Origin: Thermoanaerobaculia bacterium
GTDB lineage: Bacteria; Acidobacteriota; Thermoanaerobaculia; Multivoradales; UBA5704
Reading direction: 5' to 3'
Length of the DNA stretch: 64,000 nt
Assembly: GCA_035556715.1 (NCBI GenBank)
Contig: DATMER010000074.1
Span: 3,737 to 67,736 of the forward strand
Shown here: in pieces, positions 1,789 to 57,996 of the stretch
How the letters are laid out: every line of letters begins with the position of its first letter
Position numbering within the stretch: the stretch's first letter is position 1
The notes under the pieces: model-generated
The model's input: only the letters and a program-made list of their open reading frames with translations
Databases searched by the model: none
Told to the model about the DNA's origin: nothing
Translations under genes and position numbers: made by a program

Positions 1789-1947
1789 CCCTCACCCCCG
1801 TCCCCTCTCCCGGTCCCCCGAGCACGCCCTCCCCGGGCGAGGGGCGCCACCGCCCACCCAACAGCAACAGCAATCCACAGAAAGTCTCCCCCTCTCCCGG
1901 GGAGGGCGTGCTTGGGTGGACCGGGAGAGGGGGCCGGGGGGTGAGGG
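1789..1947. repeat. GC-rich palindromic intergenic repeat, copy A
   Basis: Termini CCCTCACCCCCGTCCCCTCTCCC ... GGGAGAGGGGGCCGGGGGGTGAGGG are inverse complements. Its right arm encodes the last codons of the HerA-like gene. Confidence 0.7.
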
Positions 1948-1951
1948 CCCT

Positions 1952-4438
1952 CTACCAGACCGCCTCCCCCTCCCGCTTCGGCGCCCAGGCGAGGGTGAGG
2001 GCCCGCACCTCGATGTCCTGGCGCCGGGGCTTCAGGCCCAGGACCTCCAGCTCCTCGGCCTCGGGGTCCAGACGCTGCTCCAGGCGCTCGATCTCGGTCT
2101 CCAGCTCGGCATTCAGGTCCGTGAGCTTCTTCTTCACGGACTCGATGGTCTCCTCGGCGTGCGCCACGTCCTTGCGCTCCTGCATGGTCCTGCTCACGCC
2201 GCGCATCGCGCTGCCCGCCCGGCTGATATTGCCGTAGCTCAGCGTCTTGCGGCCGAAGAGCGCTCCCATGACCGCGGTGCCGGCGGAGATCACGGTGCTC
2301 CAGGTCTGGCTCGACGCCTGGGCCTCCTGCTTCTCCCGCGCCTGCTCGGCGCGGCGCAGGCGCTCCTCCAGTTGCGCCACCTTGGGACCGTGCTTGCGGC
2401 GCAGCGCCTCGACCTGGGCGTCGCGCCGCTCCCGCGCGAGGTCGCCCAGCCGGATGCGGAAATCGCGCTCGGTCTCGCCGGGCTGCGACAGCGCGCCGAA
2501 GTTGACGCTGCGGAAGACTTCCAGCCGCCGCGTGCGGTAGAGGGAGTCCTCCAGCCCCTTGCGCCAGCCGTCGTAGCTGCGCGCCCGCGCCGCCGGAGCG
2601 GGCAGCGGGCAGAAACGCGCTCCGGGGACCGGCTCCCGCTCCAGCGACTCCTTCTCCACCTCGACCGGCTCGGCCGCGTACCAGTCGACGTCCCCGGCCC
2701 CGGCGAGCGGCGCCAGCAGGAAGAGGTCCTCGGCATGGTCGATTCCCGTCTTCGGCTCCACGTAATGGACGGTCGCGGCGGCGTAGAGGTGGGGCTCGTA
2801 GACCACGCCGTCCGGCCGGGTGCGGACCGGCAGGTAGCTCTGCGGGATATCCGGTGGGAGCACGGGCGGCAGGCCGGCCTGCCCGTCCGAGGGGCGCGGC
2901 GCGGCGGGCGCGACCGCCGCGGCGGCCGGAGCGGTCGACGCCGCCGCTGCCTGCGGAGTGACACCCGCGGTGGGACCCTGGGAGGTCACGCGGCCAGCGG
3001 GCAATGCCTGCTTGCGCGGATCCATCAGACGCTTGAGCTCGGGCCGGGTGAGCGGGCCGCGCAGGTAGGACATGGCCCAGCGCGTCTGGAACACGGCCGG
3101 CGCCTCCTCGTGCACGTCGTGCAGGAAGAAGACCCGCTTGTCGAGCCTGGAGAGGATCTCCTCGATCCGCTTGCGGTCGAAGGTCCCGCCGGCCGCGGCT
3201 CCTTCCAATCCGTCCAGGAGGCGCTGCTTGTCGCGCTCGGTCTGCAGGCGTCCCAGGAACCAGGTGCCGACGTTGCCGAGCCCCTTGTAGTCGATGTCCA
3301 CCGGGTTCTGGGTGGCGAGCACGAGCCCGAGGCCGAACGCGCGCGCCTGCTTGAGGAGGGTCAGGAGCGGTCTCTTCGACGGCGGCTCCGCGACCGGCGG
3401 CATGAAGCCGAAGACCTCGTCCATGCAGAGGATCGCCCGCAGGCTGCTCGTGCCCGGACGGCTGCGCGCCCAGCCGAGCGTCTGGTTGAGCAGCAGGGAG
3501 ACGAAGAACATGCGCTCGCGATCCGAGAGGTGGGCGATCGAGAAGATCGAGACCCGCGGCTTGCCCGAAGGGGTGTAGAGCAGGCGGTCGACGTCCAGCG
3601 GCTCGCCGTGGAGCCAGGCCCCGAAGCCGGGCGAGCCGAGCAGGTTGTTCACCGCCATGGCCAGCTCGAAGCGCTCCTTGGCGGGATAGAACGACTCCAG
3701 GTCCATGACGCCGATGCGCTCCACCGGCGGCTTCTGGATCTGCTGGATGAGCGCCGCCAGGTCGAGCCCCTTCCCCTGCCGCCAGGCCGCGTCGAAGATC
3801 GTGGCCATCAGGATCGAGTCCCGCCCGCGGACCGGATCGGAGTCGATCCCCAGCAGCGAGAGCAGGCTCGCCACCAGGGTGGTGACCCGCTCGCGCAGGA
3901 GGTCGCCGTCCTCCACGATCCCGGGCGGCGGCGCGTCGAGCGAGGAGAGGATGGAAACCGGCAGCCCGGCCTCGCTGCCGGGGGTGTAGACGGCGAAGTC
4001 CGCGACCTCCTTCAAGCGCGCGATGCGCTCGCCGCTCTGCCCCCACCGTGCGAGCCCCTCGCGCCAGGTCTCGGCCTCCTTGGCCGCGAACGCCTCCGGC
4101 GTGAGCCCGGCGCGGGCGGCGGCGTTCGGGTCGATCCACGGCGCGAAGTCGGCCGGCCGCAGCTCCGGGAAGGTCAGGAGGAGGTTGGCCAGGTCCCCCT
4201 TGGGATCGATGACCAGCGCGGGGATGCGGTCGATCGCGGCCTCCTCGATCAGGGAGATCAGGAGCCCGGTCTTGCCGCTGCCGGTCATGCCGACGCAGAC
4301 CGCGTGGGTCAGCAGGTCGCGAGAATCGTAGAGGAGCGGGGTGGTTGACGCTTCCCCGCGCTGCAGGTCGAAGGGCCGTCCCAGGTAGAACGCCCCGAGC
4401 TTTTCGTATGCCGCGATGTCTTCCGCCATGGGCGGCAT
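1952..4438 (-). CDS. HerA-like / DUF853-DUF87 P-loop ATPase with C-terminal coiled coil
   Basis: Walker A VCVGMTGSGKTGLL; Walker B region LCMDEVFGF; the LVLATQNPVDIDYKGLGNVGTWFLGRLQTERDK segment is typical of the HerA/FtsK-like AAA family; coiled-coil tail (EIERLEQRL). Confidence 0.75.
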   Translation of the reverse strand: MPPMAEDIAAYEKLGAFYLGRPFDLQRGEASTTPLLYDSRDLLTHAVCVGMTGSGKTGLLISLIEEAAIDRIPALVIDPKGDLANLLLTFPELRPADFAPWIDPNAAARAGLTPEAFAAKEAETWREGLARWGQSGERIARLKEVADFAVYTPGSEAGLPVSILSSLDAPPPGIVEDGDLLRERVTTLVASLLSLLGIDSDPVRGRDSILMATIFDAAWRQGKGLDLAALIQQIQKPPVERIGVMDLESFYPAKERFELAMAVNNLLGSPGFGAWLHGEPLDVDRLLYTPSGKPRVSIFSIAHLSDRERMFFVSLLLNQTLGWARSRPGTSSLRAILCMDEVFGFMPPVAEPPSKRPLLTLLKQARAFGLGLVLATQNPVDIDYKGLGNVGTWFLGRLQTERDKQRLLDGLEGAAAGGTFDRKRIEEILSRLDKRVFFLHDVHEEAPAVFQTRWAMSYLRGPLTRPELKRLMDPRKQALPAGRVTSQGPTAGVTPQAAAASTAPAAAAVAPAAPRPSDGQAGLPPVLPPDIPQSYLPVRTRPDGVVYEPHLYAAATVHYVEPKTGIDHAEDLFLLAPLAGAGDVDWYAAEPVEVEKESLEREPVPGARFCPLPAPAARARSYDGWRKGLEDSLYRTRRLEVFRSVNFGALSQPGETERDFRIRLGDLARERRDAQVEALRRKHGPKVAQLEERLRRAEQAREKQEAQASSQTWSTVISAGTAVMGALFGRKTLSYGNISRAGSAMRGVSRTMQERKDVAHAEETIESVKKKLTDLNAELETEIERLEQRLDPEAEELEVLGLKPRRQDIEVRALTLAWAPKREGEAVW

Positions 4439-4439
4439 C

Positions 4440-5654: not shown

Positions 5655-5657
5655 CGC

Positions 5658-5987: not shown

Positions 5988-6043
5988 TTGCAGTCCTCTC
6001 TTTTCTGAAATCAAAGGGCGCCGTCCTCTCGACCGCCCGCCCT

Positions 6044-7012: not shown

Positions 7013-7027
7013 CGGAGCGGGATGCTA

Positions 7028-8368: not shown

Positions 8369-8410
8369 GAGCGGGAGAGTCTAGCAGACGGGGGGAGGAG
8401 GATATTCCGC

Positions 8411-8822: not shown

Positions 8823-8840
8823 CCGGGGGCGTTGGAGCTG

Positions 8841-19579: not shown

Positions 19580-19586
19580 GCTTCTC

Positions 19587-19929
19587 CCCGGGAGCGCCGG
19601 CATCCTGCCGGCATCTTTTCCCTTCCAAACGCCGGCTATGGCCCGGCTCCCAGTCGTACAACGCGCAATCGCCGCGGCTGAGCTGTACGCAACGGGTACG
19701 ACCCGTACCCGGCGCGCACGGCCCACACGCGAAGGGGACGACTCGTATCCGACGGGTAGGGCCTCGTACCCGCAGGATACGGCTCGCCCGCGCAGGTTAC
19801 GCCTCGTACGCGAAGGGTAGGGCTTCCTACCCGGCGCGTACGCTTCGCCCCCGAAGGTTACGGCCCGTTCCCCCGATGGGGAGGCGTTCCCCAACGAGTA
19901 TGGCCGGCAGGATGCCGGCGCTCCCAGGG
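19587..19929. repeat. ~340-bp hairpin-rich element bounded by 26-bp inverted repeats
   Basis: Boundary repeats CCGGGAGCGCCGGCATCCTGCCGGCAT (19587-19612) and its inverse (19903-19929). Interior has several perfect 7-8-bp palindromes (CGGGTACG-ACC-CGTACCCG, CGTATCC...GGATACG, GGGTAGGGCTTCCTACCC). Confidence 0.5.
19596..19619 (+). terminator. Rho-independent terminator
   Basis: GCCGGCATCCTGCCGGC perfect 7-bp stem followed by ATCTTTT, 17 nt after the L,D-transpeptidase stop. Confidence 0.6.
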
Positions 19930-19960
19930 AAAAGAGCGCTTCCGATGAGCTGTTTCCTGG

Positions 19961-20029
19961 GCGGGCGGTGGCGCCCCTCGCCCGGGGCGGGCGTGCTCGG
20001 GGGACCGGGAGAGGGGACGGGGGTGAGGG
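19961..20029. repeat. Palindromic repeat family, partial copy B
   Basis: Right half GGGACCGGGAGAGGGGACGGGGGTGAGGG plus the inverse of the copy-A internal segment; overlaps the 3' end of the STAND gene. Confidence 0.55.
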
Positions 20030-20031
20030 CC

Positions 20032-22889
20032 CTACCCCACCGCCCCCTCCAACCACCGCACCTCCCGCTCCCGCCGTCCATACCCGGTCTCGTTCACCAG
20101 CTCCCGCGCCCGCGCCACATGCCGCCGCGCTTCGGCGAGATCCCCCTGGTCCCGGCAGAGGCGCGCCCACTCGAGGTGCGCGTCGCACTCGTACAGGCGC
20201 ATCGGGCCGCGCTCGGCGATTTCCAGGGCTTCGTTGAGGTCAGCGGCGGCGCCGGCAAAGTCAGAGCAAAAGCGCCGGAGGGTGGCGCGAGCCAGGAAGC
20301 CGCGGGGCAGATCGTCCTCCTGGCTGGCCCGCCGCAGGCCGTCTACCGCCTGGTCCAGTTGCTCGGCGGCTTGAGCGAGCCCGGCGGCGCGGTCTTCCCC
20401 AGTGGCTGCCGGCTGAGGGGCTGTCAGAGCCAAGCCGAGGTGGGCGCGGCCCAGGGTAAGGTCGTCGAGGGCAGTGCTGAGGAGCGAGTACCAGCTTTTT
20501 CCATACTTCAGCGTCTGCCTCGCCCGCTCCAGCACCTCCCGGCAGGCCTGTCGGAACCGCTCCACCTCCTCCAAGCGGGAGCCCACCCCGGCGAGCCCAT
20601 CCAGACCGGCTCCGACCTCCGGCTCCGACCGGCCCAGCAGCAGATCGCAGTACCGAAAACCCCCTTGCGAAGCGAGCGGGGGGTACTCCGGCTGCCGCTC
20701 CGCATGCATCGCCTCGGCCTCGCGGAAGGCCGCCGCGCTCTCCTCCCACCGGCCCGCTTGGTTCAGGGCGTCGGCCCAGGTCGTCCGATTGACAATCCGC
20801 TGAAAGGCATCGCCGCTACGGTCGGCCAACTCGACGCTCTGCTCGCCGAATGACATGGCGCGCGGCACGTCCCCTAGGGTCAAGGTCAGCTCGCTGAGGT
20901 TGCTGCCGATGATCGCGGCGTTCTTCCACTTCTCCTGAGCGATGCGCGCCTCCAGACTCACCTTCATCGGCTCTATCGCCTCCGCCAAGCGGCCCAGGGC
21001 GCGGAGGACGATGGCGGCCTCGTTCAGGATGAACGCCTGATCCGCTGCGGTAACGTGGGCGGAGGGCTGGGACCAGGGGCGATCGAAGAAGCCCGCCAGC
21101 GCCGTCAGCCCCGAGCCGAAGGCTCCGAGCTTCCTCAAACTGAAGTGCTCGTTCCCCCGCAGGATCCGCCGCCAGTAGACTTCGTCCATTGCCTCCTGCA
21201 GCCGCCCCGCCCGACAGCCGTGGATGATAGCGGCGTAGAGGGGTTGCATCGCTTCTAGGGTGTCAGGAAGGTCCGGTGCTGCCTGGCGCAGGTGCTCGTA
21301 GAGGCGCCGGTTGCCTTCCTGCCAAGCGTCGGAGCGGTGGCTCTCGAGTTCCTCCGCGAAGCAGGCGCGCACCAGGGGATGAGCATCGAGGGTCTCCGGC
21401 TCGCGCGCGTCGGCCGCCGCCAGCAGACCGTGATCCCGCAGGGTGGCGATGGCGAGCCGCCAGTCTTCGTCCGAGAGGCCCACCAGGGGCTCCGTAAGCC
21501 CTGGGATCGGCGGCACGGCACGCAGGGCCTTCAGGACGTCGGCCTCCGCGGGCCGGTCGAAGAGGCCGAGGAGACGGAGGATCGCGAGCTCTGGACCCTC
21601 TCCCAGCCAGTGGGCGTAGGTGGCGATCACATGGAAGGCGCGGCCGCCCTGTTTCTCGTCGGCCCGGTGGAGATCGATCTCCCGCCGCTTGCGGATGTCG
21701 CCGCCGTGGGCCCGGCGAAGGAAGTTGCCGAGAAGGGTCAGGGTGAGGGCGTGTCGCTTGAAGTCCTCGGCTGCGGCGCGTAGCTCGCTCTCCCGGCCAT
21801 TCACGCCGAGTTGGCGAAGAAGATCCACCGCAGCGCCAAGCTCTAGTTCCTCCAGGGGGATCTGCGATGCCGTGCTTGGGGAGCCGGAGAGGTCGGCGAT
21901 CCGTTCCCGGGTGGTAACCACGCAGAGGCCCGGGTTGCCCGCGGCAAGACTCTTGAGGAGGGCGGAGAGGCCGGGGTCCTTGAGGCGGCCCTCGATCTCC
22001 GGCCGGCCCGGCGGGTATTGCAGGGGCTCGACACCGTCGAGGACGAGCAGAGAGCGCTCCTTCCTGATGAGTCCTGCGAGGCGGGCGCCGCGGTCGTGAA
22101 GGGAGACGGCCTTGGGGTCGGGATCACCGAAGAAACGGAGGGCGTGGTCGATGAACGCTCGGCGGAGGTGTTCTGGTCTTTGCTCCCCTGGCTGTAGAAC
22201 GACCAGTCCAGCACCCGCACGGCCCCGCGCCAGCCCTCGGCCGCCATGCGGTCCATCCAGCGGGCGACCAGCGCCGACTTGCCGACGCCCCCGAAGGCCA
22301 CCAGGGTGAGGACGTGGATGGTTGGGTTCTCCCAGGCTGCATCCAGCCGGGCGATCTCTGCCTCCCGGCCGACGAACTTCGAGCCGGGGATGGGTAGACG
22401 GCCGGTGTCGAGGAGGGGACCCGGGTAGGGGGGCGCCGGGCTCGTGGAGGACGCCGTTGGGCCGGGAAAAACGGGTTGCTGCGCCGGCTTGGGTCGGTCG
22501 TCAGAGACCGCGGTGAGCACGGCCGCCTTGGCCACGTCGGCAGGCAGCCCCACCAGATCGGCATAGATCAACGGCTTGAGCAGTCCGGTGGGTGAGCACG
22601 GCGCAACCCGCAGAGGGATCAATTTGCGGTCCTCGCCACGGGGATCCTGCGCGAAGGCAGCAGCCCATTCCGGCTGGGTGTAGTCGGCCTTGAGGTAGTT
22701 GTCGGTCAGGACCACCACCGTCTTGCGTGTCTCGCCGGCCGCCTTCTGCATCTCCAGGACGAAGTTGCCACCAGGCCGGAAGTCCCACGGCTGATAGACC
22801 ACCTGATAGCCCGCCTCTTCGAGCATCCAGGCGATCCAATCGGCCCACGCCTTGTCGGCACTATTGAAGCTGACGAAGAAGTCTTTCAT
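20032..22889 (-). pseudogene. TIR - NB-ARC (STAND P-loop NTPase) - TPR protein, apparently frameshifted
   Basis: Frame A (22889 to ~22170): bacterial TIR domain then Walker A VAFGGVGKSALVARW. Frame B (~22200 to 20032): Walker B LLVLDGVEP, RNBS-B GLCVVTTRE, GLPL-like ALTLTLLGNFL, then TPR repeats. The two frames overlap near 22160-22200. Confidence 0.65.
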
Positions 22890-22922
22890 CGAGTTCCCAG
22901 ACTCGTTCGACGGCGCCGCGTG

Positions 22923-23330
22923 CTACGACTGGGAGGTCCAGTCTTCGAGGGCTATTCCAAGGCCCGTGAAGTGCCGGGTGTTGTTCGTCACAAGCGTAGC
23001 GTTCCACTTCCGGGCCAGTGCGGCGAGCAGGAGATCGGGATCGGAAATCCCTTGGCCAGACCGGTGCCGCTCCGCCCAAAACCGGGCCGCCTTATCCCAA
23101 TCCTCGAACGAGGGCTCGCAACGCTGCCACGTGGCCGTCAACTGCTCGTAGAGCCGGAGGAGCCGGTATGCCCCTTTCAAATGGAGGTAGCGGGTCAGCT
23201 CGTAGTGCGCAACGGAAGCGAGGAGGAACGACTTCCCCTGCCGCACGGCCTCATCCAACTTCGCAGGCACTGGGGGAACGTTCTTCAGGATGTAGCTGAG
23301 CGTATTCGTATCGAGGAGAAGGACGCTCAT
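22923..23330 (-). CDS. vapC: PIN-domain ribonuclease toxin VapC
   Basis: LLDTNTLSY N-terminal Asp motif and LVTNNTRHF C-terminal motif; 135 aa. Confidence 0.85.
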   Translation of the reverse strand: MSVLLLDTNTLSYILKNVPPVPAKLDEAVRQGKSFLLASVAHYELTRYLHLKGAYRLLRLYEQLTATWQRCEPSFEDWDKAARFWAERHRSGQGISDPDLLLAALARKWNATLVTNNTRHFTGLGIALEDWTSQS

Positions 23331-23629
23331 CAGTCCTCTTCTGTCAGGCTTGCGAAGCGGATCGGATGCTCGTCCCGAAAGGTCTCGAATGCGCCAAGGA
23401 CCTCTTCCTCCTCAGGCGTGAGCTGCACGGAGCGCAACTCGGCCAGCGCAGCAAGCGTCCGTTGCTGGGCAGAGAGATGAGCTGCTGGGCTCAGTTGTGC
23501 GTCACCTGCCGGCCGATGCGTGAGGACAATAACTTCGGCAGGCCCCTCCGGAAAATCGTCCGGGAGCCGAACCTCGACTCGATGGTCTTCTTGGATCGTC
23601 ACCTTCAGCTTATGAGCATGCACGGCCAA
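23330..23629 (-). CDS. vapB: VapB-type antitoxin
   Basis: 99-aa acidic protein directly upstream of vapC with a 1-nt overlap; C-terminal EEEEVLGAFETFRDEHP tail. Confidence 0.6.
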   Translation of the reverse strand: MAVHAHKLKVTIQEDHRVEVRLPDDFPEGPAEVIVLTHRPAGDAQLSPAAHLSAQQRTLAALAELRSVQLTPEEEEVLGAFETFRDEHPIRFASLTEED

Positions 23630-23740
23630 GCCCTCCGTTACAACTACAATTGTAAACGCATCTGCCTTTAGCAGCGGGAGCCTGCTGCCTGAGTCGTAAA
23701 TGCCGGAGGCACTCGGGTGGCTGCCCGAGGATTCAGGCCC

Positions 23741-24523
23741 TCACCCCGCGAACCACTTCACCGCCTCCTTAGCAATGTCCGGAGGCACCGTGTGCGGGCC
23801 GTCGAACTCCCGGTAGAGGACATCGTAGCCCGCGTTCTTGAGCTGCGGGACCAGCTTGCGGCTGCAGCGGTCGATAGAGAGCACCTGGTCACCCGTGCCG
23901 TGGGAAACGTAGATCTTCGGCTTCCCCCGCTGGTCCTTCGGCACCATGAAGCCGGGCGAGAGGGCGATCACGTGGCTGAAGAGGTCGCCGTTGGTGATCC
24001 CGATCGAGAGCGCGTAGGAGGCGCCGTCCGAGAAGCCCTCGGCCGCGATGCGCTTCGGGTCCACGGCGCAGCGGGCGAAGGTGTGCTCCAGGGCGCGGTC
24101 GAGGAAGGCGATGTCCGGACCGTAGCCCCCTTCGAGGACGTCCCAGGTCTGCCCCCGGGAGTCCGTGGCCAGGAGGATCAGCCCGGCCTCGTCCGCCAGG
24201 TTCTGGAAGGGTCCCAGGGCGCGGCGGGCGCTCCCTCCCGCGCCGTGCAGCATCACGGCGAGCGGGGCGGGACGGTCCGCCTTGTAGCCCTTGGGCACGT
24301 AGAGGACGCCGTCGCGCCGTCCGCCCAGCCCGAGCTCGTGCAGCCCCGGCTTCGCCTCTTCCATGGGAGCCCCGGGGCGGGCCACGAGCCGCGCTTCGGT
24401 GGCTGTCGATGGCAAGGCATCCCCCTTCTTCTTCGCGTTCTGCGCGTTCTGCGCGGACAGCTGGCGCGCCGCCGCAAGGCCCAGGAACGCCATGGAGAGC
24501 AGCTCGCGCCGAGTCATTTCCAT
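23741..24523 (-). CDS. Secreted alpha/beta-hydrolase (phospholipase/carboxylesterase or PHB-depolymerase-like esterase)
   Basis: Tat/Sec-like signal MEMTRRELLSMAFLGLAAA; nucleophile elbow GFSDGAS; HGTGD His region; 260 aa. Confidence 0.7.
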   Translation of the reverse strand: MEMTRRELLSMAFLGLAAARQLSAQNAQNAKKKGDALPSTATEARLVARPGAPMEEAKPGLHELGLGGRRDGVLYVPKGYKADRPAPLAVMLHGAGGSARRALGPFQNLADEAGLILLATDSRGQTWDVLEGGYGPDIAFLDRALEHTFARCAVDPKRIAAEGFSDGASYALSIGITNGDLFSHVIALSPGFMVPKDQRGKPKIYVSHGTGDQVLSIDRCSRKLVPQLKNAGYDVLYREFDGPHTVPPDIAKEAVKWFAG

Positions 24524-24527
24524 CCCC

Positions 24528-25176: not shown

Positions 25177-25343
25177 CCTCACCCCCTGTCCCCCTCTCCC
25201 GTCTCCCACCCCTCCCCCGCCGGGAGAGGGGGAACGTATCTGGGGCCGCCGTGACCGAACGCGAGGCACGACAGCCTCAGTCACGTCCCCCCTCTCCCGG
25301 GGTCGGGCCGGCGGGAGACGGGAGAGGGGGACAGGGGGTGAGG
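25177..25343. repeat. Palindromic repeat family, full copy C
   Basis: CCTCACCCCCTGTCCCCCTCTCCC...GGGAGAGGGGGAACG...CCCCCCTCTCCCGGGG...GGGAGAGGGGGACAGGGGGTGAGG in the divergent region between the NicO-like gene and smc. Confidence 0.7.
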
Positions 25344-29000: not shown

Positions 29001-29032
29001 TCGTTTTATCCGTTCCTGTGTCTCTCGATTGA

Positions 29033-29057
29033 GCCCGCCGTCCTGGCGGGCTTTTTG
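29033..29057 (+). terminator. Rho-independent terminator after smc
   Basis: GCCCGCCGTCCTGGCGGGC stem-loop followed by TTTTT. Confidence 0.7.
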
Positions 29058-30398: not shown

Positions 30399-30516
30399 TC
30401 CCATTCCCCCTCTCCCCAGCCCTCTCCCCCATGCTGGGGGAGAGGGAGATCGCGGAGGAACGGAAGTTGCACCGCCCCGGGCGCGGCCGGCTCAACTCCC
30501 GGCCCGGAGGCGGAAC

Positions 30517-32399: not shown

Positions 32400-32725
32400 C
32401 TCCATTATTTTGGATCGAAATTGCCTTCGATCGCTTCGGAATGGAATCCAGCGCATAAAAATCTCATCGAACGCGCTCGTCTCCATTACTATGTACCCGA
32501 TTTCATTTCCGATCCATACGAATGGATCCCATCCCATAAAAACGCCGTCGAAGCCTTAATCTCCATTCCTATGGATCGAAAATGAAATCGGGTCCATCAG
32601 ATTGGACTCGAACGCATAAAGATCCCGCCGAGCGCGATCTTCTCCATTATTATGGATAAAAAGTCATTCGTATCCATCCGAATGGGTTCTGGCGCGTTCC
32701 GCGGGCTGTTTATGCGTCCGAAATG
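32400..32725. repeat. Tandem direct repeats, ~80-81 bp x 4 (plus degenerate extension to ~32870), low-GC
   Basis: Units start CTCCATTAYTWTGGA at 32400, 32481, 32561 and 32643. Shared blocks GAATGGRWYC and CGCATAAARAYC. Located between the convergent DUF2007 gene and the Cys-rich gene. Confidence 0.7.
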
Positions 32726-33398: not shown

Positions 33399-33479
33399 TG
33401 CCGGAGGCGGGACTCGAACCCGCACGCCTTGCGGCGAGAGATTTTAAGTCTCCTGCGTCTGCCATTCCGCCACTCCGGC
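33399..33479 (-). tRNA. tRNA-Leu (anticodon UAA)
   Basis: GCCGGAG acceptor stem; D-arm; anticodon loop CTTAAAA (UAA); long variable arm CGCC-GCAA-GGCG; T-arm GCGGG-TTCGAGT-CCCGC; discriminator A; CCA not encoded. Confidence 0.85.
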
Positions 33480-35227: not shown

Positions 35228-36634
35228 ATGTACACACGAAAACTGCCGCCGGTTCTCACACTGGCCTTGGCCCTGATGACCGGGACTCAGGGGCTCGCCG
35301 CGGCGACCCTCAAGGTGACGCCGCCAGAGCTGAAGATCCGGCAGCACCAGCTCGCCAACGGGCTGAAGATCGTCCTCCACGAGGACCGCTCGGTCCCGGT
35401 CGCCAACGTCCAGGTCTGGTACCACGTCGGCTCGAAGGACGAGCGCCAGGGGCGGAGCGGCTTCGCGCACCTGTTCGAGCACATCATGTTCAAGGGCTCG
35501 GCCAACGTGGAGCCCGAGGAGCACATCAACTTCATCAGCTCCATCGGCGGGCGCTTCAACGCGACCACGGACTTCGACCGCACGCTCTACTTCCAGACCT
35601 TCCCCAGCCAGTACCTGGAGCGGATGCTCTGGATGGAGGCCGACCGCATGCGCTCGCTGGACGTGTCGGAGGAGAACTTCCTCTCCGAGCGCGACGTGGT
35701 CAAGGAGGAGCGGCGGCTCCGGATCGAGACCCCGCCCTTCGGCCGGCTCTTCGAGGTGGTGCTCGACAAGACCTTCACCGCCCATCCGTACCGCATCCTC
35801 CCCATCGGCAGCATGGCCGACCTGGAGGCCGCCACGATCGAGGACGTGCGGGAGTTCCACCGCACCTACTACGTGCCCAACAATGCCACGCTCGTGATCT
35901 CCGGCGACTTCCAGTCAGACGAGACGCTGGGCTGGATCGAGAAGCACTTCGGCTCGATCCCCAAGGGGCAGGCGATCCCGCGCAACGTCCCGAAGGAGCC
36001 GGCGCAGACGGCCGAGCGCCGGACAGTCGAGTACGACGCGAACACGCCGCTCCCCGCGGTGATCTTCACGTACCACATGCCCGAGGCCGGGCACCCCGAC
36101 CTCTACGCGCTGCAGGTGGCCGCCAATGTCCTCTCCAACGGCCAGAGCTCGCGGCTCTACCGCAAGATGGTCTACGACCAGCAGATCGCGCTGGAAGCCG
36201 GCGGTCAGACGATCATCCTGGAGGACCCCGGGGTCTTCTTCTTCTTCGCGATCCTGCAGGCCGGCAAGACGGTCGAGGAGGCCGAGAAGGCGCTCGCCGA
36301 GGAGGCGGAGCGGCTGCGCAACGAGCCGGCGCCCCAGGAGGAGCTGGAGAAGGCCAAGAGCCAGATCGTTGCCGGGCAGGTCTTCGAGCGCCAGACCGTG
36401 CAGGACAAGGGCGTGGCCATCGGCTACGCCAGCGTGATCCTGGGCGACGTATCGCGGGTCGACAAGGACCTCGCCGAGTTCCAGAAGGTCACGGCCGCGG
36501 ACGTGCAGCGGGTGGCCCGGACCTACTTCCGGCCGGAGAACCGCACCGTCGTCCACATGCTGCCCGCGGCCATGAAGCCGGGACAGGGTCAGCCCGAAGG
36601 GAAGCCCGAGGGAAAGACGGAGGAGCAGCCATGA
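35228..36634 (+). CDS. M16 family zinc peptidase (active subunit)
   Basis: Inverted zincin motif HLFEHIMFKG (HxxEH); signal peptide; GGGAGG RBS 7 nt before ATG 35228. Confidence 0.85.
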   Translation: MYTRKLPPVLTLALALMTGTQGLAAATLKVTPPELKIRQHQLANGLKIVLHEDRSVPVANVQVWYHVGSKDERQGRSGFAHLFEHIMFKGSANVEPEEHINFISSIGGRFNATTDFDRTLYFQTFPSQYLERMLWMEADRMRSLDVSEENFLSERDVVKEERRLRIETPPFGRLFEVVLDKTFTAHPYRILPIGSMADLEAATIEDVREFHRTYYVPNNATLVISGDFQSDETLGWIEKHFGSIPKGQAIPRNVPKEPAQTAERRTVEYDANTPLPAVIFTYHMPEAGHPDLYALQVAANVLSNGQSSRLYRKMVYDQQIALEAGGQTIILEDPGVFFFFAILQAGKTVEEAEKALAEEAERLRNEPAPQEELEKAKSQIVAGQVFERQTVQDKGVAIGYASVILGDVSRVDKDLAEFQKVTAADVQRVARTYFRPENRTVVHMLPAAMKPGQGQPEGKPEGKTEEQP

Positions 36635-38163
36635 AGATCACCCGATTTGTCCTCTCGCGATTTGCCCTCTCGATAACCGCCCTGGCCCTGCTGACGGGCG
36701 CGGCCTCCGCGCAGGAGGCCAAACCGAAGCAGACCCCTCCCCCGCCCAAGCCGGCCAAGGAGATCCGCTTCCCTGCCTTTGAAGAGAAGACGCTCGCCAA
36801 CGGGCTGCGCCTGGTGGTCATCGAGCAGCACGAGACGCCGTCGCTCTCCGCGCAGCTGCTCTTCCCGGGCGGCAAGGTCCACGCTCCCGCCGGCAAGGCG
36901 GGTCTGGCCGACGCCACCGCCGCTCTGGTCCGGGAAGGGACCACGGCGCGCTCGGCGCAGCAGATCGCCCAGACCATCGATTCGGTGGGCGGTGTGCTGA
37001 CCACGGGCGCGAGCCTGGAGTCGGGCTTCGCCGGGGTGCGCGTGACCTCGGACCAGCTCGACCTGGCGCTCGACCTCCTCTCGGACGTGATCCTGCGCCC
37101 GAGCTTCCCGGCCGAGGAGCTGGAGCGCTGGCGCAACCAGACGCTGAGCGGCCTCCAGATCCAGCAGACGGACCCCGAGTACATCGCGGACGCGGCCTTC
37201 GTGCAGGCCGTCTACGGCGGCCACCCCTACGGGCAGCCGGCCACGGGCACGCCGGAGTCGGTCCAGGGCCTGACGCGGGACGACCTCGCCGCCTTCCACC
37301 GCCGGCAGTACGTGCCCAACGAGTCGATCCTGGCGATCGTCGGCGACGTCAAGGCGGCCGACGCATTCGCCAAGGCGGAGCGCTTCTTCGGCGCCTGGAA
37401 GCGGGGCGAGGAGTCGCGCATCCCCGCGGTCAAGCCAGCGCAGGCGCAGCGCCGGATCGTCATCATCGACAAGCCCGACGCCGTGCAGACGCAGATCCGC
37501 GTCGGCCAGATCGCGATCGGCTACCGCGACCCCGACCACTTCGCCGCGCAGGTCTACGATTCCGTGGTGGGATCGAGCTCCAACTCGCGCCTGTATGAGG
37601 AGGTCCGGCGCAAGCGGGGTTTGTCTTACGGGGCCTTTACGGACCTCCGGCTGCCATCCGAGCCGGGCTGGTTCCTGGCGAACACGTTCACGAAGACCGA
37701 GTCCACGGCCGAGGCCCTGGGGCTGGTGCTGGAGGTGCTCGAAGGCATGGGCAAGACGCCTGTCCCGGCCGAGGAGCTGGAGACGCGCAAGACCTACCTG
37801 ACCGGCGCGTTCCCCCTGGAGATCGAGACGCCGGACGGCATCGCAGGCAAGGTGCTGGAGGCCATGAAGTTCGGCTATGGCCGCGAGTACCTGGAGAGCT
37901 ACCGCGACAAGCTGGGCGCGGTGACTGCCGAGCAGGTGAAGAGCTTCGCCGGGCGCAGGCTCCAGCCGGACCGGATGCTGGTCGTCCTGGTGGGCAACGC
38001 CAAGGCCTTCGCCGCGGACGTCGAGAAGCGCTTCGGAAAAGCGGAGACGATCCCCATCGGCGAGGTGGACCTGCTGCAGCCCGGGCTGCGGAAGAGCCCT
38101 CACCCCCCGGCCCCCTCTCCCGCCTCCCCATCTCCCTCCCCGGGAGAGGGGGAGACTGAATAG
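36631..38163 (+). CDS. M16 family peptidase, non-catalytic partner subunit
   Basis: M16 fold (LANGLRLVVIE...) without HxxEH; start overlaps the upstream gene (ATGA). C-terminal PHPPAPSPASPSPSPGEGETE tail is encoded by palindromic repeat D. Confidence 0.8.
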   Translation: MKITRFVLSRFALSITALALLTGAASAQEAKPKQTPPPPKPAKEIRFPAFEEKTLANGLRLVVIEQHETPSLSAQLLFPGGKVHAPAGKAGLADATAALVREGTTARSAQQIAQTIDSVGGVLTTGASLESGFAGVRVTSDQLDLALDLLSDVILRPSFPAEELERWRNQTLSGLQIQQTDPEYIADAAFVQAVYGGHPYGQPATGTPESVQGLTRDDLAAFHRRQYVPNESILAIVGDVKAADAFAKAERFFGAWKRGEESRIPAVKPAQAQRRIVIIDKPDAVQTQIRVGQIAIGYRDPDHFAAQVYDSVVGSSSNSRLYEEVRRKRGLSYGAFTDLRLPSEPGWFLANTFTKTESTAEALGLVLEVLEGMGKTPVPAEELETRKTYLTGAFPLEIETPDGIAGKVLEAMKFGYGREYLESYRDKLGAVTAEQVKSFAGRRLQPDRMLVVLVGNAKAFAADVEKRFGKAETIPIGEVDLLQPGLRKSPHPPAPSPASPSPSPGEGETE

Positions 38164-38253
38164 CAGCTTTCTCGCCTCAAGAGAGGGTGCGCGGGGGCGC
38201 CCCTCTCCCGGCGAGGGTGGTCGGGGAGGCGGGAGAGGGGACGGGGGTGAGGG
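38097..38253. repeat. Palindromic repeat family, full copy D
   Basis: CCCTCACCCCCCGGCCCCCTCTCCC...GGGAGAGGGGACGGGGGTGAGGG between the convergent M16 and ubiB genes. Confidence 0.7.
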
Positions 38254-38256: not shown

Positions 38257-39939
38257 CTACCGCGGCGGCCTGTTCCGCCACACCCTCCAGTCGTCGTTGA
38301 AGAGGATGCTCAGCACCAGGGCGAAGCCGCAGAAGGCGGCGAGCAGGAAGAGGATCATCGCGAGACCCGGATAGCCGAACAGGGTGAAGGTGGTCCTCAC
38401 CTGCATCAGCAGCGCGGCGCCCACGATCAGGGCGGCCAGCACCAACCCCGAGGCGATCCGGTTCGCGATCTTCTGCAGGTTGTCCATCAACCGGCTCTCG
38501 TCGAAGGCGTTGACCTTGACCTCCAGGCGGTTCCCGGTCAGCGAGTCGAGGAGCGTGTTCAGCCGTCCCGGGAGCTGGTGCACCAGCTCGTACATTTCCA
38601 GGGTCGAGGAGAACAGGTTCGACGGCGACAGCCGCTTCATCATGTGCCGCCGCATGATCGAGTCGCTGTGCCGGCGCACGCTCTCCGTCGGGTTGAACCC
38701 GGGGTCCAGGCTCCGGGAGACGTCGTCCATGTGGAGCAGGGCCCGGCCGAGAATGGTCAGCTCCGGCGCCGGCCGGATGCCGTTCTCCGCGGCCTTGCGC
38801 GACAGCGCCATCACGATCCGGCCGACCTTGATCTGCTCGGCCGAGGCGTCCTGGGCCGCGCCCACCAGGTCGGAGATCTCGCGCTGGAAGCGGGTGTCGT
38901 CCGCGCCCTCCATCCGGGTGCCGATCTGCACCACGATCTCCGCGGCCTGATTGCCGCGGCCGTCGGTCACCGCCAGGATCAGCTTGAGCAGCTTCTCCTG
39001 CATCTGGGGATCGATCCGCGACACCATCCCGAGGTCCAGGAGCGCCAGCCGGCCGTCGCGGGTGATCAGGAGGTTGCCCGGGTGCGGGTCCGCGTGGAAG
39101 AAGCCGTCCACCAGGATCTGATCGAGGTAGGCCCGGCAGAGATCGTCCGCCAGGGCGCGGCCGTCGAAGTCGATGCGGGAGAGCGGCGACATCTCGGTGA
39201 TCTTGGTGCCCGGGATGTAGTCCATGGTCAGGATGCGGGAAGTCGTGTAATCGTCCACCGGCTGGGGCACGACGATCCGCTCGTAGCGCCGCAGGTTGGA
39301 GCCCAGGGTCACCAGGTTCAGCGCCTCGCGGCGGTAGTCGAGCTCGCGCAGCAGGGTCTTGCGGAACTCCTCCAGCATGTCCTGGAAGGCGAAGCGGCGG
39401 CCGACCTCGGTGTGCTTGTCGATGAAGCCCGCCATCTCGTGGAAGGCCTCGAGGTCCTCCAGGATGATCTGCTGGATGCCCGGGCGCTGCACCTTGACCA
39501 CGACCTCGCGCCCCGTGCGCAGCCGCGCCCGGTGGACCTGGCCCAGGGAGGCCGCGGCCAGCGGCACATTGTCGAAGTCCGCGAAGGCCTTCGAGAGCCG
39601 CACTCCCAGCTCGGAGGAGACGATCTGCTCGACGTCCGCGAAGGGGAAGGGCTCGATGTTGTCCTGCAACCGGGCGAGGGCGTCCAGGTAGGGCTGCGGC
39701 AGGAGGTCGGAGCGGGTCGAGAGGAGCTGCCCGAGCTTGATGAAGGTCGGCCCCAGCTTCTCCAGGTCGCGGGCGAGCTGCTCGGGATCGCCGGAGACCG
39801 CTTCCGAGGACGCGCTGTCATCCTGCGGCAGGTTCTCATCCATCTGGATGGCCTGCGCAAGATCGGCCCGCCCGTGCTTGATCAGCAGCGCGGCGATGTC
39901 CTTGTACCGTTTCAGATGATAGGTCTTCAGAGCGATCAT
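38257..39939 (-). CDS. ubiB: UbiB/ABC1-family atypical kinase
   Basis: KLGQLLSTR, VKVQRPG, HADPHPGNLL and LDLGMV motifs; two C-terminal TM helices. Start taken at MIALKT (39939), not the upstream ORF extension. Confidence 0.85.
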   Translation of the reverse strand: MIALKTYHLKRYKDIAALLIKHGRADLAQAIQMDENLPQDDSASSEAVSGDPEQLARDLEKLGPTFIKLGQLLSTRSDLLPQPYLDALARLQDNIEPFPFADVEQIVSSELGVRLSKAFADFDNVPLAAASLGQVHRARLRTGREVVVKVQRPGIQQIILEDLEAFHEMAGFIDKHTEVGRRFAFQDMLEEFRKTLLRELDYRREALNLVTLGSNLRRYERIVVPQPVDDYTTSRILTMDYIPGTKITEMSPLSRIDFDGRALADDLCRAYLDQILVDGFFHADPHPGNLLITRDGRLALLDLGMVSRIDPQMQEKLLKLILAVTDGRGNQAAEIVVQIGTRMEGADDTRFQREISDLVGAAQDASAEQIKVGRIVMALSRKAAENGIRPAPELTILGRALLHMDDVSRSLDPGFNPTESVRRHSDSIMRRHMMKRLSPSNLFSSTLEMYELVHQLPGRLNTLLDSLTGNRLEVKVNAFDESRLMDNLQKIANRIASGLVLAALIVGAALLMQVRTTFTLFGYPGLAMILFLLAAFCGFALVLSILFNDDWRVWRNRPPR

Positions 39940-44832: not shown

Positions 44833-44998
44833 CCTCACCCCCTGTCCCCCTCTCCCATCTCCCACCCGGCCCCCGCCGGGAGAGGGGGAACGTGGCTGAG
44901 GCCATCTTGCCTTCGCTCAGGCACGACTGCCACAGATACGTCCCCCCTCTCCCGGGGAGGGTAGGGCGGGAGATGGGAGAGGGGGACAGGGGGTGAGG
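44833..44998. repeat. Palindromic repeat family, full copy E
   Basis: Near-identical to copy C (CCTCACCCCCTGTCCCCCTCTCCCATCTCCC...GGGAGAGGGGGACAGGGGGTGAGG). Confidence 0.7.
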
Positions 44999-49520: not shown

Positions 49521-49525
49521 TGCTT

Positions 49526-50340: not shown

Positions 50341-50351
50341 GACTCCGAAGC

Positions 50352-50398
50352 CGCGCGGGCGGGGGCTTCCTCTCCCGCGAAGCGGGGGAGGATAGAGG
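50352..50398. repeat. Left inverted repeat (IR-L) of STAND cassette
   Basis: GGGCTTCCTCTCCCGCGAAGCGGGGGAGGATAGAGGAGGGGGTC is ~42/47 identical to the inverse complement of 53286-53332. Confidence 0.6.
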
Positions 50399-50408
50399 AG
50401 GGGGTCTT

Positions 50409-50804: not shown

Positions 50805-50839
50805 GAGGGGCTCCCTGGGTCAGGAGAAGGTTCGAAAGG

Positions 50840-53242: not shown

Positions 53243-53285
53243 GGATTCGGCTCGTCGGAGGTTTCTCTCAAGATATCACGCGCAG

Positions 53286-53332
53286 ATGTGCGGACCCCCT
53301 CCCCTGCCCTCCCCCGCTGCGCGGGAGAGGGA
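53286..53332. repeat. Right inverted repeat (IR-R) of STAND cassette / partial palindromic-family copy F
   Basis: GACCCCCTCCCCTGCCCTCCCCCGCTGCGCGGGAGAGGGAGCC; followed at 53336-53353 by GGAGGAGTACTGCCGGTGG, a copy of the lipoprotein 3' end. Confidence 0.6.
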
Positions 53333-53351
53333 GCCCGGAGGAGTACTGCCG

Positions 53352-53625
53352 GTGGCGCGAGAGATTGTGAGCGGCAGGCGCGCGGCGCACGCCCTGAGAG
53401 GGCGGCTTCCGCCCTTTAAAGGGCGGTGTCCGCCCTCTGAGGGACGATGCTCGCCCTTTGAGGGACGATGCCCGCCCTCTGAGGGGCAGCCTTCGCCCTT
53501 TGAGGGACGATGTCCGCCCTTCGAGGGACGGTCTCCGCCCTTCGAGGGGCGATGCCCGCCCTTTGAGGGATGGCATCCGCCCTTTGAAGGCGACGGCCGC
53601 CCCGGAAGGGCGAGCGCCTCCGCAT
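53352..53625. repeat. Tandem array of ~13 x 21-bp direct repeats
   Basis: Unit consensus CGCCCTYYGAGGGACGATGYC, each containing a CCCT-N3-AGGG mini-palindrome. ORFs on both strands here show heptad periodicity and are repeat artefacts. Confidence 0.75.
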
Positions 53626-53667
53626 GAGGACATCCGGCGACCGGAGAGGAGTTATTGCCTGTAGAGC

Positions 53668-54249: not shown

Positions 54250-54308
54250 GGAATCAATGTTCTCCCGAAGCGCGCCCGCCACTCGATGAGAACATCGTAA
54301 CACGGAAC

Positions 54309-56411: not shown

Positions 56412-56450
56412 CAGGGATAGTTTACGAGGAGATCTCCGGGAAGTTCGGAT

Positions 56451-56584
56451 CCCTCACCCCCTGGCCCCCTCTCCCATCGCACTCCCGCCCTCCCGGGAGA
56501 GGGGGAACCTTTCTTATGCCTCCTCTCTTTTCCCCCTCTCCCGGTGGAAGGGAGGGGATGGGAGAGGGGGCCAGGGGGTGAGGG
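56451..56584. repeat. Palindromic repeat family, full copy G
   Basis: CCCTCACCCCCTGGCCCCCTCTCCC...GGGAGAGGGGGCCAGGGGGTGAGGGG between the divergent phosphatase and M28 genes. Confidence 0.7.
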
Positions 56585-56607
56585 GTCCGTCGGGTAGACT
56601 GCCCTGA

Positions 56608-57516
56608 ATGCATCCCACCCTCCGACGGACCGCTGTCCTTCTGGCGTTCCTCGCCGCCTGCCGCGGTGAAACGGAGGCGCCGCCTCCGGCTCCGACTCCC
56701 CGGCCCGCGGTCCATCTTCTGGGAGAGGGGATCGACGTGGCGCGGGCCATGGCCCACCTCCGGAAGCTGGCGGAGAGCCCGCGGCCGACCGGCTCGGCCG
56801 CGGAGGCCCGCGCCGCGGCGTACCTGGAGAAAGAGCTGGCGTCGTATGGCTACCGGGTCGAGCGCCAGCCCGTCCCCCTGCCCGGCGGCGGGGAGTCGGC
56901 CAACGTCATCGCGCTCCCTTCAGACCCGGACTTCGACCCGGCGGAGGACCGCCACCTCCTCACGGGGGCACACTACGACACGGTCGCGGGGAGCCCAGGG
57001 GCCAACGACAACGCCTCGGGCGTCGCCGTCCTTCTGGAAGTGGCGCGGGCTCTCGGAACCCGTCCCGCCAAGTTGCCGGTGGTGCTCGTGGCCTTCGGCG
57101 CCGAGGAGGGGCGGGCGGGCCCCCACCATCAGTCTCTGGGCGGCTCGCAGCATTACGCCCGCGGGATGTCCCCGGAAGAAGCGCGCCACCTCGCGGCCAT
57201 GATCAACCTGGACATGGTCGGCCGCGGGGACGCGCTGCTCCCGACCCTGAGGATCAACATGAAGCGCGGGGTCCACCAGCGGATGCTCGGCATCGCCGGC
57301 CGGCTGGGGGTGCCGGCGAAGGAGCACCTGACGCCCCAGGTCTCGGACTCCGTGCCCTTCGCGAGCCGGGGGGTGGAGACGGCCTGGCTTTGGACCGGCG
57401 TGGAGCCGTCCTATCATTCCCCCTTGGACACTCCGGAGAAGATCACGCCGGAGACGCTGGACTGGGCCGGGCGGCTGACCCTGGCCACCATCCGATCGTT
57501 TGACGTAAATGATTGA
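56608..57516 (+). CDS. M28 family peptidase (lipoprotein)
   Basis: LAFLAAC lipobox; HYDTV..GANDNASGVAVLLE and FGAEEG zinc-ligand motifs. Confidence 0.8.
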   Translation: MHPTLRRTAVLLAFLAACRGETEAPPPAPTPRPAVHLLGEGIDVARAMAHLRKLAESPRPTGSAAEARAAAYLEKELASYGYRVERQPVPLPGGGESANVIALPSDPDFDPAEDRHLLTGAHYDTVAGSPGANDNASGVAVLLEVARALGTRPAKLPVVLVAFGAEEGRAGPHHQSLGGSQHYARGMSPEEARHLAAMINLDMVGRGDALLPTLRINMKRGVHQRMLGIAGRLGVPAKEHLTPQVSDSVPFASRGVETAWLWTGVEPSYHSPLDTPEKITPETLDWAGRLTLATIRSFDVND

Positions 57517-57527
57517 GGGAGACGCAG

Positions 57528-57923
57528 ATGAACGACGCAACCTACGTAACCGACGCCCATGCCGCCATCGACGCCGCCCGGGAGCAGGCAGCCCGGGAGG
57601 GCAAGCGGGTGGCCGTCGTCTTCGGCGCCAACTGGTGCCCGGACTGCTACGCCCTGGAGAAGGCGCTCACCCACCGGCTCGTGGAGCCGATCCTGGAGCC
57701 CAGCTACGTGGTCGTGAAGGTCACGGTGGGCAACCGCAACCAGAACCTCGACCTCATGGCCGACTACGGCATGGACGTGGTGAGGGGCATCCCCGCCATC
57801 GCCATCCTGGAGCCCGACGGCACCCTGATCAAAGCCCAGACCGACGGCGAGTTCCGCAACGCCAACTCGCTGCTATCCGTGGCCGAGATCGCGACCTTCT
57901 TCCACAAATGGGCGCCTAAGTAG
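57528..57923 (+). CDS. Thioredoxin-fold protein (WCPDC)
   Basis: VAVVFGANWCPDCYALE active-site motif; GAGGGAG RBS 7 nt upstream of ATG 57528; ~130 aa. Confidence 0.7.
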   Translation: MNDATYVTDAHAAIDAAREQAAREGKRVAVVFGANWCPDCYALEKALTHRLVEPILEPSYVVVKVTVGNRNQNLDLMADYGMDVVRGIPAIAILEPDGTLIKAQTDGEFRNANSLLSVAEIATFFHKWAPK

Positions 57924-57924
57924 G

Positions 57925-57996
57925 CCCTCACCCCCGTCCCCTCTCCCGGGGCGGGTGTGCTTGGGAGGAGCGGGAGAGGGGGCCGGGGGGTGAGGG
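57925..57996. repeat. Palindromic repeat family, short copy H
   Basis: CCCTCACCCCCGTCCCCTCTCCCGGGG...GGGAGAGGGGGCCGGGGGGTGAGGG (arms only, ~72 bp). Confidence 0.65.

Follow-up and report, generated by a model that had tools for sequence, protein, structure and literature searches.

The intrastrand-triplex motif found in Escherichia coli in the 1990s as BoxC was described as the PIT element in 2000 (Hoyne et al. 2000) and as TM(ECO) in 2015 (Holder et al. 2015, PMC4666352). Here we report on a family of G+C-rich palindromic repeats in a 64,000-nt stretch of DNA (~69% G+C; hereafter the window) from a metagenome-assembled genome of the Thermoanaerobaculia (Acidobacteriota); this family constitutes a new long-loop variant of this known motif class and not a canonical member.

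The published pattern is CCCTCNCCC N3-6 GGGNGAGGG N3 GGGNGAGGG, that is, three blocks separated by two loops, and 3610 TM(ECO) were counted in 262 proteobacterial genomes (PMC4666352). The isolated E. coli strand adopts a purine-motif triplex in vitro; in E. coli the motif showed no promoter or terminator activity but blocked polymerase in vitro (PMC4666352). E. coli loci carrying the motif are more rearranged between strains, its inverted pairs always join two types of loop 2, and partial deletions in which the hairpin is retained have been reported (PMC4666352). BoxC has been handled apart from the repetitive extragenic palindromic (REP) sequences, with no tie found to mobile elements and, in E. 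coli, none to phages (PMC4666352). The RefSeq annotation of strain MG1655 places no label on the BoxC pair at 164547-164631.

An initial annotation of the window listed eight copies of the repeat, which we number 1 to 8 from left to right. All eight places hold the sequence described, to within 1-5 nt, and seven of them belong to one family; the eighth, given as 53286-53332, is a divergent variant outside it, and two further copies of the motif (30407-30447 and 50363-50406) had been overlooked. Family membership was counted with the unit pattern CCCCTCTCCC, 3-40 nt, GGGAGAGGGG, 1-6 nt, GGGGTGAGG, allowing at most one mismatch per block. This identified 14 units in the window (approximately one per 4.6 kb), as against none in each of 30 composition-preserving shuffles of it. 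The main family comprises 13 units, spread over seven of the eight listed copies, and the exact 10-mer CCTCACCCCC occurs 12 times in the window, every time at one of the listed places and mostly in facing pairs. One might suppose that these are unrelated, G/C-rich stretches of low complexity which are alike through composition, and both the G+C content of the window and its 28 one-mismatch 10-mers (15 expected) would fit such a view. The shuffles and the invariance of the blocks speak against it, as does the pairwise identity of the five long copies (68-86%, mean 75%), compared with a mean of 62% and a maximum of 68% for random 160-mers drawn from the window; the initial annotation had itself named identity no higher than background as the outcome that would refute a family, and this outcome did not occur. 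Copies 3 and 5 are 86% identical, their centers included; between copy 2 and one arm of copy 1, identity reaches 97% over 74 nt. Copies have been duplicated within the genome, and we give chance resemblance next to no credit.

On the G-rich strand each unit is composed of block 1 (CCCCTCTCCC), loop 1, block 2 (GGGAGAGGGG(G)), loop 2, and block 3 (GGGGGTGAGG(G)). Block 1 is a pyrimidine block; each of the 13 main units has either CCCCTCTCCC or CCCCTCGCCC here, followed by a G-rich loop 1 of 17-24 nt. Block 2 is invariant and complementary to block 1 with no more than one mismatch, loop 2 is 2-3 nt (AC, CCG, ACA or CCA), and block 3 is a purine block that mirrors block 2, the mirror register giving 10-11 consecutive allowed triads against 8-10 in the direct-repeat register. 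An alignment of 19 units, 13 from the window and six from two related genomes, reveals that the three blocks are identical throughout and that both loops vary. In the long copies (1, 3, 4, 5 and 7), 134-167 bp in total, two units face each other in inverted order across a variable center of 28-57 nt. When folded with ViennaRNA (RNA minimum free energy [mfe] with z-scores; Watson-Crick pairing only), each forms one hairpin, with energies between -118 and -160 kcal/mol and z-scores between -7.5 and -16, and the nested pairing that the initial annotation had described for full copies is correct. A G-quadruplex motif (on one strand, four or more tracts of at least three G separated by 1-7 nt) is matched by all 14 units, with 4-7 such tracts each; the window contains 23 such motifs in total. 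Judged by this pattern, a quadruplex may compete with the triplex in these units.

Compared with BoxC/PIT/TM(ECO), the blocks of the window units fit the published pattern in both identity and order (CCCTCNCCC, GGGNGAGGG, GGGNGAGGG), and loop 2 is likewise short, the window 'CCG' being E. coli type B. As in E. coli, the units are intergenic, occur in both orientations and have no tie to gene function or orientation. They frequently form inverted pairs, often of two loop-2 types (AC and CCG are combined in copies 1, 4 and 8), they decay through partial deletion with the hairpin kept, and the loci that carry them differ between relatives. The principal difference resides in loop 1, which is 17-24 nt and G-rich here as opposed to the published 3-6 nt; only 30407-30447 (5 nt) and a short-loop unit in the relative L128 (3 nt; L-numbers denote comparison loci from other genomes or viral contigs) have a loop 1 in the published range. 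It is because loop 1 falls outside this range that we speak of a variant rather than a canonical member. In addition, the window blocks reach 10-11 nt, most window copies are 134-167 bp composite palindromes which fold as one hairpin around their 28-57 nt center, and the host belongs to the Acidobacteriota, whereas the TM(ECO) count covered proteobacterial genomes. We consider that the repeats are probably the Thermoanaerobaculia-lineage version of the widespread BoxC/PIT/TM(ECO) intrastrand-triplex motif, with blocks that are kept either because they fold back or because a factor reads the fold.

Covariation among the blocks bears directly on this proposal. In variant families from relatives and from other phyla all three blocks are altered together, block 1 being complementary to block 2. 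Pairs of block 2 and block 3 include GGGAGAAGAGGG with GGGGTGATGAGGG, GGGAGAGAGGGGG with GGGGGAGTGAGGG, GGGGGAGAGGG with GGGGAGAGGGGG (at 30407-30447 of the window and in the orthologous copy of L128), GGGGGAGGG with GGGGAGGGGG (window 53293-53336), and GGGAAGGGG with GGGGATGGGG or GGGGTTGGGG (L164, L179 and L190). The clearest is a cyanobacterial variant, GGGAGAAGGGG with GGGGGATGAGGG, for which the mirror arrangement gives 11 allowed triads and the direct one four. In every asymmetric case block 3 is the mirror of block 2, with A matched by A or T, and does not follow a direct copy. Complementarity between blocks 1 and 2 would be explained by a hairpin; the mirror symmetry of block 3, as read from these alignments, suggests that it folds back onto the duplex or that a factor reads this geometry, since only these would account for it. 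We regard the covariation as suggestive because independent asymmetric cases are few.

The proposed structure would arise in a single strand, where blocks 1 and 2 would pair as a hairpin and block 3 would fold back onto it through G*G:C, A*A:T and T*A:T triads. Selection on the blocks would act through this structure, or through a factor reading it, and the fold-back might take place in DNA that is transiently single-stranded during replication, repair or transcription. The main effects would be local obstacles to polymerases and intergenic instability, for instance by deletion between an element's own direct repeats, as might have occurred in copy 8 and in keeping with the deletions reported in E. 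coli. Two units in inverted order would together make one long hairpin, or a cruciform, of great stability. The elements are non-coding and carry no gene for their own movement; they are unlikely to serve specifically as promoters, terminators or coding sequence, and we infer that they are orphan structural repeat DNA.

Several observations weigh against the triplex-motif interpretation. In vivo footprinting with dimethyl sulfate (DMS) in E. coli revealed no triplex, and double-stranded DNA remained duplex (PMC4666352). The first loop of all 13 main units lies outside the published 3-6 nt, such that a triplex in long-loop units is putative, and the minimum-energy fold of paired elements is one long hairpin which leaves no third block free. 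Mirror and direct arrangements can be told apart in few asymmetric variants; in only two of these is the asymmetry inside the block, the others being distinguished by the lengths of their G runs. The interpretation names no mechanism for copying units to new sites, and structure alone leaves the recurrence of identical 9-11-mers in different phyla unexplained; a protein that reads the sequence, or horizontal spread, may be behind it.

The distribution of the core was surveyed with the pattern GGGAGAGGGG N2-5 GGGGTGAGG, using one genome per species, and matches were found at no fewer than 120 genome loci from many phyla. Among the matches listed are Chloroflexota, Planctomycetota, Acidobacteriota, Xanthomonadales, Pseudomonas, Cyanobacteria, Bacteroidota and candidate phyla, and some of the matched loci are only 37-38% G+C. 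A C-rich block lies at most 70 nt upstream in 145 of 158 matches, generally across a short gap (mode 3 nt, ~3-10 nt). The termini and inner pair of the repeat together constitute the three-block BoxC/PIT/TM motif, and because the matches span many phyla with the C-rich block upstream, the core is not that of a lineage-specific REP. A G-rich loop 1 of 19-33 nt was found, among the matches listed, only at Thermoanaerobaculia/Holophagales loci (L003, L053, L055, L059, L084 and L106), and the long G-rich loop thus appears to be the lineage-specific part. In contigs of Polyangiales (L006, 1-140) and Anaerolineales (L103, 1-819), blocks 2 and 3 or whole units are found in head-to-tail arrays with a period of 36-42 bp. 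From these arrays it follows that the motif can also expand as a satellite.

The motif is also present in phages. The full 29-base short-loop motif was found in at least 120 IMG/VR contigs (L204-L323; for example L227/L243, L234/L278, L272, L274 and L279), whereas the E. coli report of 2015 contained no phage association (PMC4666352). Several of these contigs are from genuine tailed phages, as judged by PHROG hits to terminase, portal, head protease and tape-measure genes, and one has a Mu-like transposase. In viral contigs with several copies all of them lie on one strand, the G-rich strand being antisense to the genes, and at least one copy is located inside a portal open reading frame (ORF). 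Strand preference was scored with symmetric stop-adjacency and start-adjacency tests; motifs just upstream of a Shine-Dalgarno (SD) sequence and start codon are on the opposite strand in 50 cases and on the same strand in 11 (p = 5e-7, though the phages are related and the counts not independent). These findings suggest that phages may be a vehicle by which the motif spreads and that it may be under a constraint specific to one strand. A simple alternative is that the bias may reflect selection against G-rich, Shine-Dalgarno-like mRNA, to judge from the sequence of the motif. Among cultured phages, a BLAST search with the 38-nt consensus gave two matches only, Leptolyngbya phage Lsp-JY19 and Virus Rctr41k. 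The long-loop pattern matched viral contigs four times; all four are extended-stem loops and none contains the G-rich Thermoanaerobaculia loop, so there is no evidence of phages carrying the long-loop variant.

Orthologous loci were gathered by exact-protein look-ups of homologues of the M28 peptidase beside copy 7 and by a metagenome scan with SMC, the product of the gene downstream of copy 3. The database copy of the M28 peptidase (P0001) begins at a later start than the 302-aa version, and the 302-aa start had no exact match. At the sites of copies 7 and 8, L126 (77% M28 identity, good synteny) has composites of ~205 bp; their blocks are identical to those of the window, their first loops and centers differ, and the right boundary at site 8 is that of the window (GGGTGAGGG | (T)CTGTTCCAAAC). 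Both sites are empty in L125. The element is also missing from both in L123, which has another palindromic insert at site 7 (9930-10050, with short repeats of AAGGAC type); unrelated palindromic repeats therefore colonize the same intergenic spot. The site upstream of smc (copy 3) is empty in L127, L189, L130 and L178 (91-95% SMC identity), where 22-68 bp of unrelated spacer is found. L128 (88% SMC identity) has at this site a unit with a short loop 1, in which block 2, the 'ACA' loop 2 and block 3 are as in copy 3, and L154 has a composite element there. Most relatives lack any unit in up to 23 kb. Because close relatives are empty, short-loop or composite at the same sites, copies are gained and lost over short evolutionary scales; where an element persists, the blocks stay constant while the remainder drifts. 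The initial annotation had proposed looking for target-site duplications, and none is seen in the filled-versus-empty comparisons at sites 3, 7 and 8 or at 13 element ends; at the three sites the entire spacer differs between filled and empty alleles.

The likeness to REP elements and miniature inverted-repeat transposable elements (MITEs) on which the initial annotation had remarked holds as far as form is concerned (dispersed, intergenic, palindromic, non-coding), but not for GTAG, target-site duplication or a transposase in the window. Were the elements REPs or REPINs, they would be inverted pairs of REP hairpins and would depend for their movement on the trans action of a REP-associated tyrosine transposase (RAYT) whose gene lies at another place in the genome. 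They share with REPINs and bacterial interspersed mosaic elements (BIMEs) a pair of short palindromic units inverted about a spacer, an intergenic and multi-copy occurrence, and mosaics with other repeats; their presence or absence among close relatives fits as well, the lack of target-site duplications is expected for HUH single-strand transposition, and classical GTAG-type REP doublets are found in the lineage, at 61517-61629 of the window and as centers of triplex-motif composites in L135 and L084. The flanks at 13 element ends of the window nevertheless possess no conserved GTAG/CTAC, the core is common to many phyla, unlike that of lineage-specific REPs, no Y1 or RAYT gene occurs among the 40 predicted window proteins, and BoxC is set apart from REP in published work, without a link to mobile elements (PMC4666352); we consider a REPIN origin quite unlikely. 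A candidate GTAG/RAYT signature was rejected. CTAC within 16 nt of an element is enriched approximately two-fold in unique flanks (11 versus 4.6 expected in 153 genome flanks, 8 versus 4.0 in 157 viral ones), and four of five element-abutting stop codons are TAG in a G-TAG context; because TTAC and CTAA are enriched alongside, the CTAC excess is read as opposite-strand stop codons. A MITE, in turn, would be a deletion derivative of an insertion sequence (IS), whose terminal inverted repeats (CCCTCACCCCC...GGGGGTGAGGG) are read by a DDE transposase. The size class (134-167 bp), inverted termini, dispersed non-coding copies and subfamilies with shared centers (copies 3 and 5, 86% identical) would agree with this, and the Correia, ERIC/IRU and Nezha MITEs also have long predicted hairpin RNAs, insertion at gene ends and extension of ORFs, as seen here in an M16 peptidase tail. 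It is difficult to reconcile, on the other hand, with the lack of target-site duplications at the 13 ends and three sites compared and with the whole-spacer differences, which are not those of a clean insertion, with solo half elements and short-loop single units at the same sites, with the lack of a parent IS or any transposase in the window, and with the fact that the supposed terminal repeat is block 3 of a stand-alone three-block motif, occurring partnerless in most other phyla. We regard it as very unlikely.

An element acting at the level of RNA, as a stabilizer of 3′ ends, an unconventional terminator or a translational regulator, deserves mention because a stop codon lies 1-4 nt from the start of five of the seven main copies, the RNAs fold with extreme stability, and the phage motifs, on contigs that proved to be those of real tailed phages, show the 50 to 11 opposite-strand adjacency to SD and start codons. 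The G-rich GGGGGTGA also appears to resemble GGAGGTGA, the Shine-Dalgarno-like complement of the 16S 3′-end, and the C-rich blocks the 16S tail itself. Hairpins in the window are not followed by a T-tract, though, and a scanner for intrinsic terminators (hairpin plus T-run) made no call at any element end, its total for the window not exceeding that of shuffles; a canonical terminator was called after smc (29031-29053). Two copies lie between divergent promoters, where transcription is not required, bacterial genome loci exhibit no significant orientation bias (15 versus 23; 7 versus 10), and no promoter or terminator activity was found in the E. coli assays (PMC4666352). The phage bias could arise equally from selection against G-rich, SD-like or G4-prone mRNA, and related multi-copy phage contigs are not independent of one another. 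An RNA-level role is in our opinion improbable. The triplex-motif interpretation may also be taken further, such that the three-block motif is a selected functional module, its fold-back triplex or reader operating in cells, with a role in phage expression or replication and with phages as the vehicles that bring the 30-nt core to different phyla, the Thermoanaerobaculia long-loop form being an elaboration; this extension is likewise unlikely.

The individual copies lie in divergent, convergent and gene-end regions, as the initial annotation had stated, and in co-directional intergenic regions as well: copies 1, 5 and 8 and the 30.4-kb variant are co-directional, copies 2 and 4 convergent, and copies 3 and 7 divergent. 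Copy 1 (1789-1947) is a composite palindrome with a left unit at 1790-1844 (minus strand, loop 2 'AC'), a right unit at 1889-1946 (plus strand, 'CCG') and a center at 1845-1888; it folds with an RNA mfe of -132.7 (z = -11.5) and is bounded by the stop of a HerA-like gene (1952, minus strand) and the start of a DUF4126 gene (1701, minus strand). Copy 2 (19958-20031, plus strand) is a solo half element consisting of block 1 CCCCTCGCCC, a 23-nt loop and GGGAGAGGGG-AC-GGGGGTGAGGG. It is complementary (97%) to 1787-1860, the left arm of copy 1, and adjoins the TAG stop of a TPR gene (20032-21921, minus strand). Copy 3 (25177-25343; mfe -147.6, z = -13.4) lies where a 207-aa gene (start 25151, minus strand) and smc (start 25461, plus strand) diverge; it is a composite of units 25177-25231 (minus strand) and 25289-25343 (plus strand), and loop 2 is 'ACA' in each. 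The composite copy 4 (38097-38253), with units 38098-38151 (minus strand, 'CCG') and 38200-38252 (plus strand, 'AC'), is found between convergent genes; the ORF of an M16 peptidase ends inside it (38163) and an ABC1 kinase gene stops at 38257. Copy 5 (44833-44998), which has units 44833-44887 (minus strand) and 44944-44998 (plus strand), is a composite with 82-nt arms that are 85% complementary (mfe -151.4), located between the stop of an ABC2/M1 gene (45003, minus strand) and the probable start of a DUF885 gene (~44807, minus strand). The last of the composites, copy 7, was listed as 56451-56584, but its inverted repeat reaches over 56446-56589; it has a 28-nt center and units 56452-56504 (minus strand) and 56533-56583 (plus strand) with loop 2 'CCA', between the divergent SpoIIE gene (start 56411, minus strand) and M28 peptidase gene (plus strand). 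Copy 8 (57925-57996) begins 1 nt past the stop of a thioredoxin-like gene (57923) and is a single 72-bp hairpin of overlapping units, 57926-57981 (minus strand, 'AC') and 57938-57995 (plus strand, 'CCG'); its structure is that of the long form minus the stretch between its two direct CCCCTCTCCC repeats.

Copy 4 overlaps the end of the M16 peptidase ORF (36631-38163) by 67 nt, and apart from this overlap every copy is intergenic; the final 22 codons of that ORF (PHPPAPSPASPSPSPGEGETE, followed by the stop) are encoded by the repeat (38097-38163). Homology of this protein to solved M16 structures ceases near residue 457 of 510. The spurious ORFs that the initial annotation attributed to the repeat are indeed derived from it, and are proline/serine-rich. 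Pfam scans of the 40 predicted window proteins detected no transposase of any kind, and Rfam returned nothing at gathering thresholds; at E <= 1 the only matches, all far short of threshold, were generic hairpin matches to models of eukaryotic miRNA precursors.

Three variants accompany the main family. That at 30407-30447 (minus strand) is CCCTCTCCCCC-AGCAT-GGGGGAGAGGG-CT-GGGGAGAGGGGG, in which block 3 mirrors block 2 exactly; the variant is situated between the stop of a DinB gene (30398) and the start of a YkuD gene (30517), and has its ortholog at 4238-4276 of L128. A degenerate triplex-type variant, CCTCTCCC-GCGAAGC-GGGGGAGG-ATA-GAGGAGGGGG, lies at 50363-50406 (plus strand). The divergent copy 6, now placed at 53293-53336 (minus strand), is CCCTCTCCC-GCGCAGC-GGGGGAGGG-CA-GGGGAGGGGG, and its block 3 also mirrors block 2. 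The latter two are inverted partners, 89% complementary, which bracket two genes (131 aa, and a TPR protein of 800 aa). Gene order near this module is such that the window and L121 differ from L126.

Repeats of other types are found in the same DNA. At 61517-61629 there is a REPIN-like doublet, two exact inverted copies of GTAGGGGCGGGTCTTGTGCCCGCCC of the GTAG...CTAC type, for which zero would be expected by chance. It begins 18 nt past an ATG at 61499, in frame with the ORF 61462-63240, and may therefore lie inside the 5′-end of a gene. It is this repeat, and not the triplex-motif family, that fits the RAYT model. GTAG-type REP hairpins occupy the center of triplex-motif composites at two Thermoanaerobaculia loci (L135, 8330-8395; L084), and in phage contig L243 (8615-8660) one is found beside the motif, as a 41-nt insertion that is absent from the related phage L234. 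These mosaics of REP and triplex motif in L135, L084 and L243 are reminiscent of E. coli BIMEs. A tandem array of ~11 units of 21 bp, each a hairpin GGGCGG-nnnn-CCGCCC followed by TnTGAG, extends over 53379-53609, between the start of a TPR gene (53242) and the end of a DUF3782-like gene (53668). At 32473-32615, in the lowest-GC stretch of the window, there is a 143-bp, A+T-richer palindrome with 54-nt arms that are 81% complementary; it is ~800 bp from tRNA-Leu(taa) (33399-33479, minus strand) and could be a MITE or what is left of an integration site.

TPR, TIR-AAA (21843-22889) and esterase-like genes lie in a 4.9-kb segment (19581-24527) that is missing from the close relative L189. An inverted repeat (19581-19612/19903-19934), three 61-bp repeats (19706-19868) and the solo copy 2 are found at the left edge of this segment, which may be an accessory or defense-type island. 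A lanthipeptide-type cluster occupies 10501-16069 on the minus strand and comprises genes for a C39-peptidase ABC exporter (10501-12708) and a LanM-like synthetase (12875-16069; DUF4135 and LANC_like).

For annotation, recognition of this family averts false ORF calls and marks those real genes whose ends have been rewritten by a repeat. The window extends the motif to the Acidobacteria in a distinct form, long-looped and paired. Turnover of copies with invariant blocks, variants whose blocks change jointly and the strand bias in phages make both selection on a triplex-capable architecture and the nature of the copying agent more testable. If the three-block motif is a selected functional module, the reading which we consider unlikely, the covariation of the blocks would constitute evolutionary evidence for the fold-back, or for a factor reading it, within cells, which footprinting in E. 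coli failed to show.

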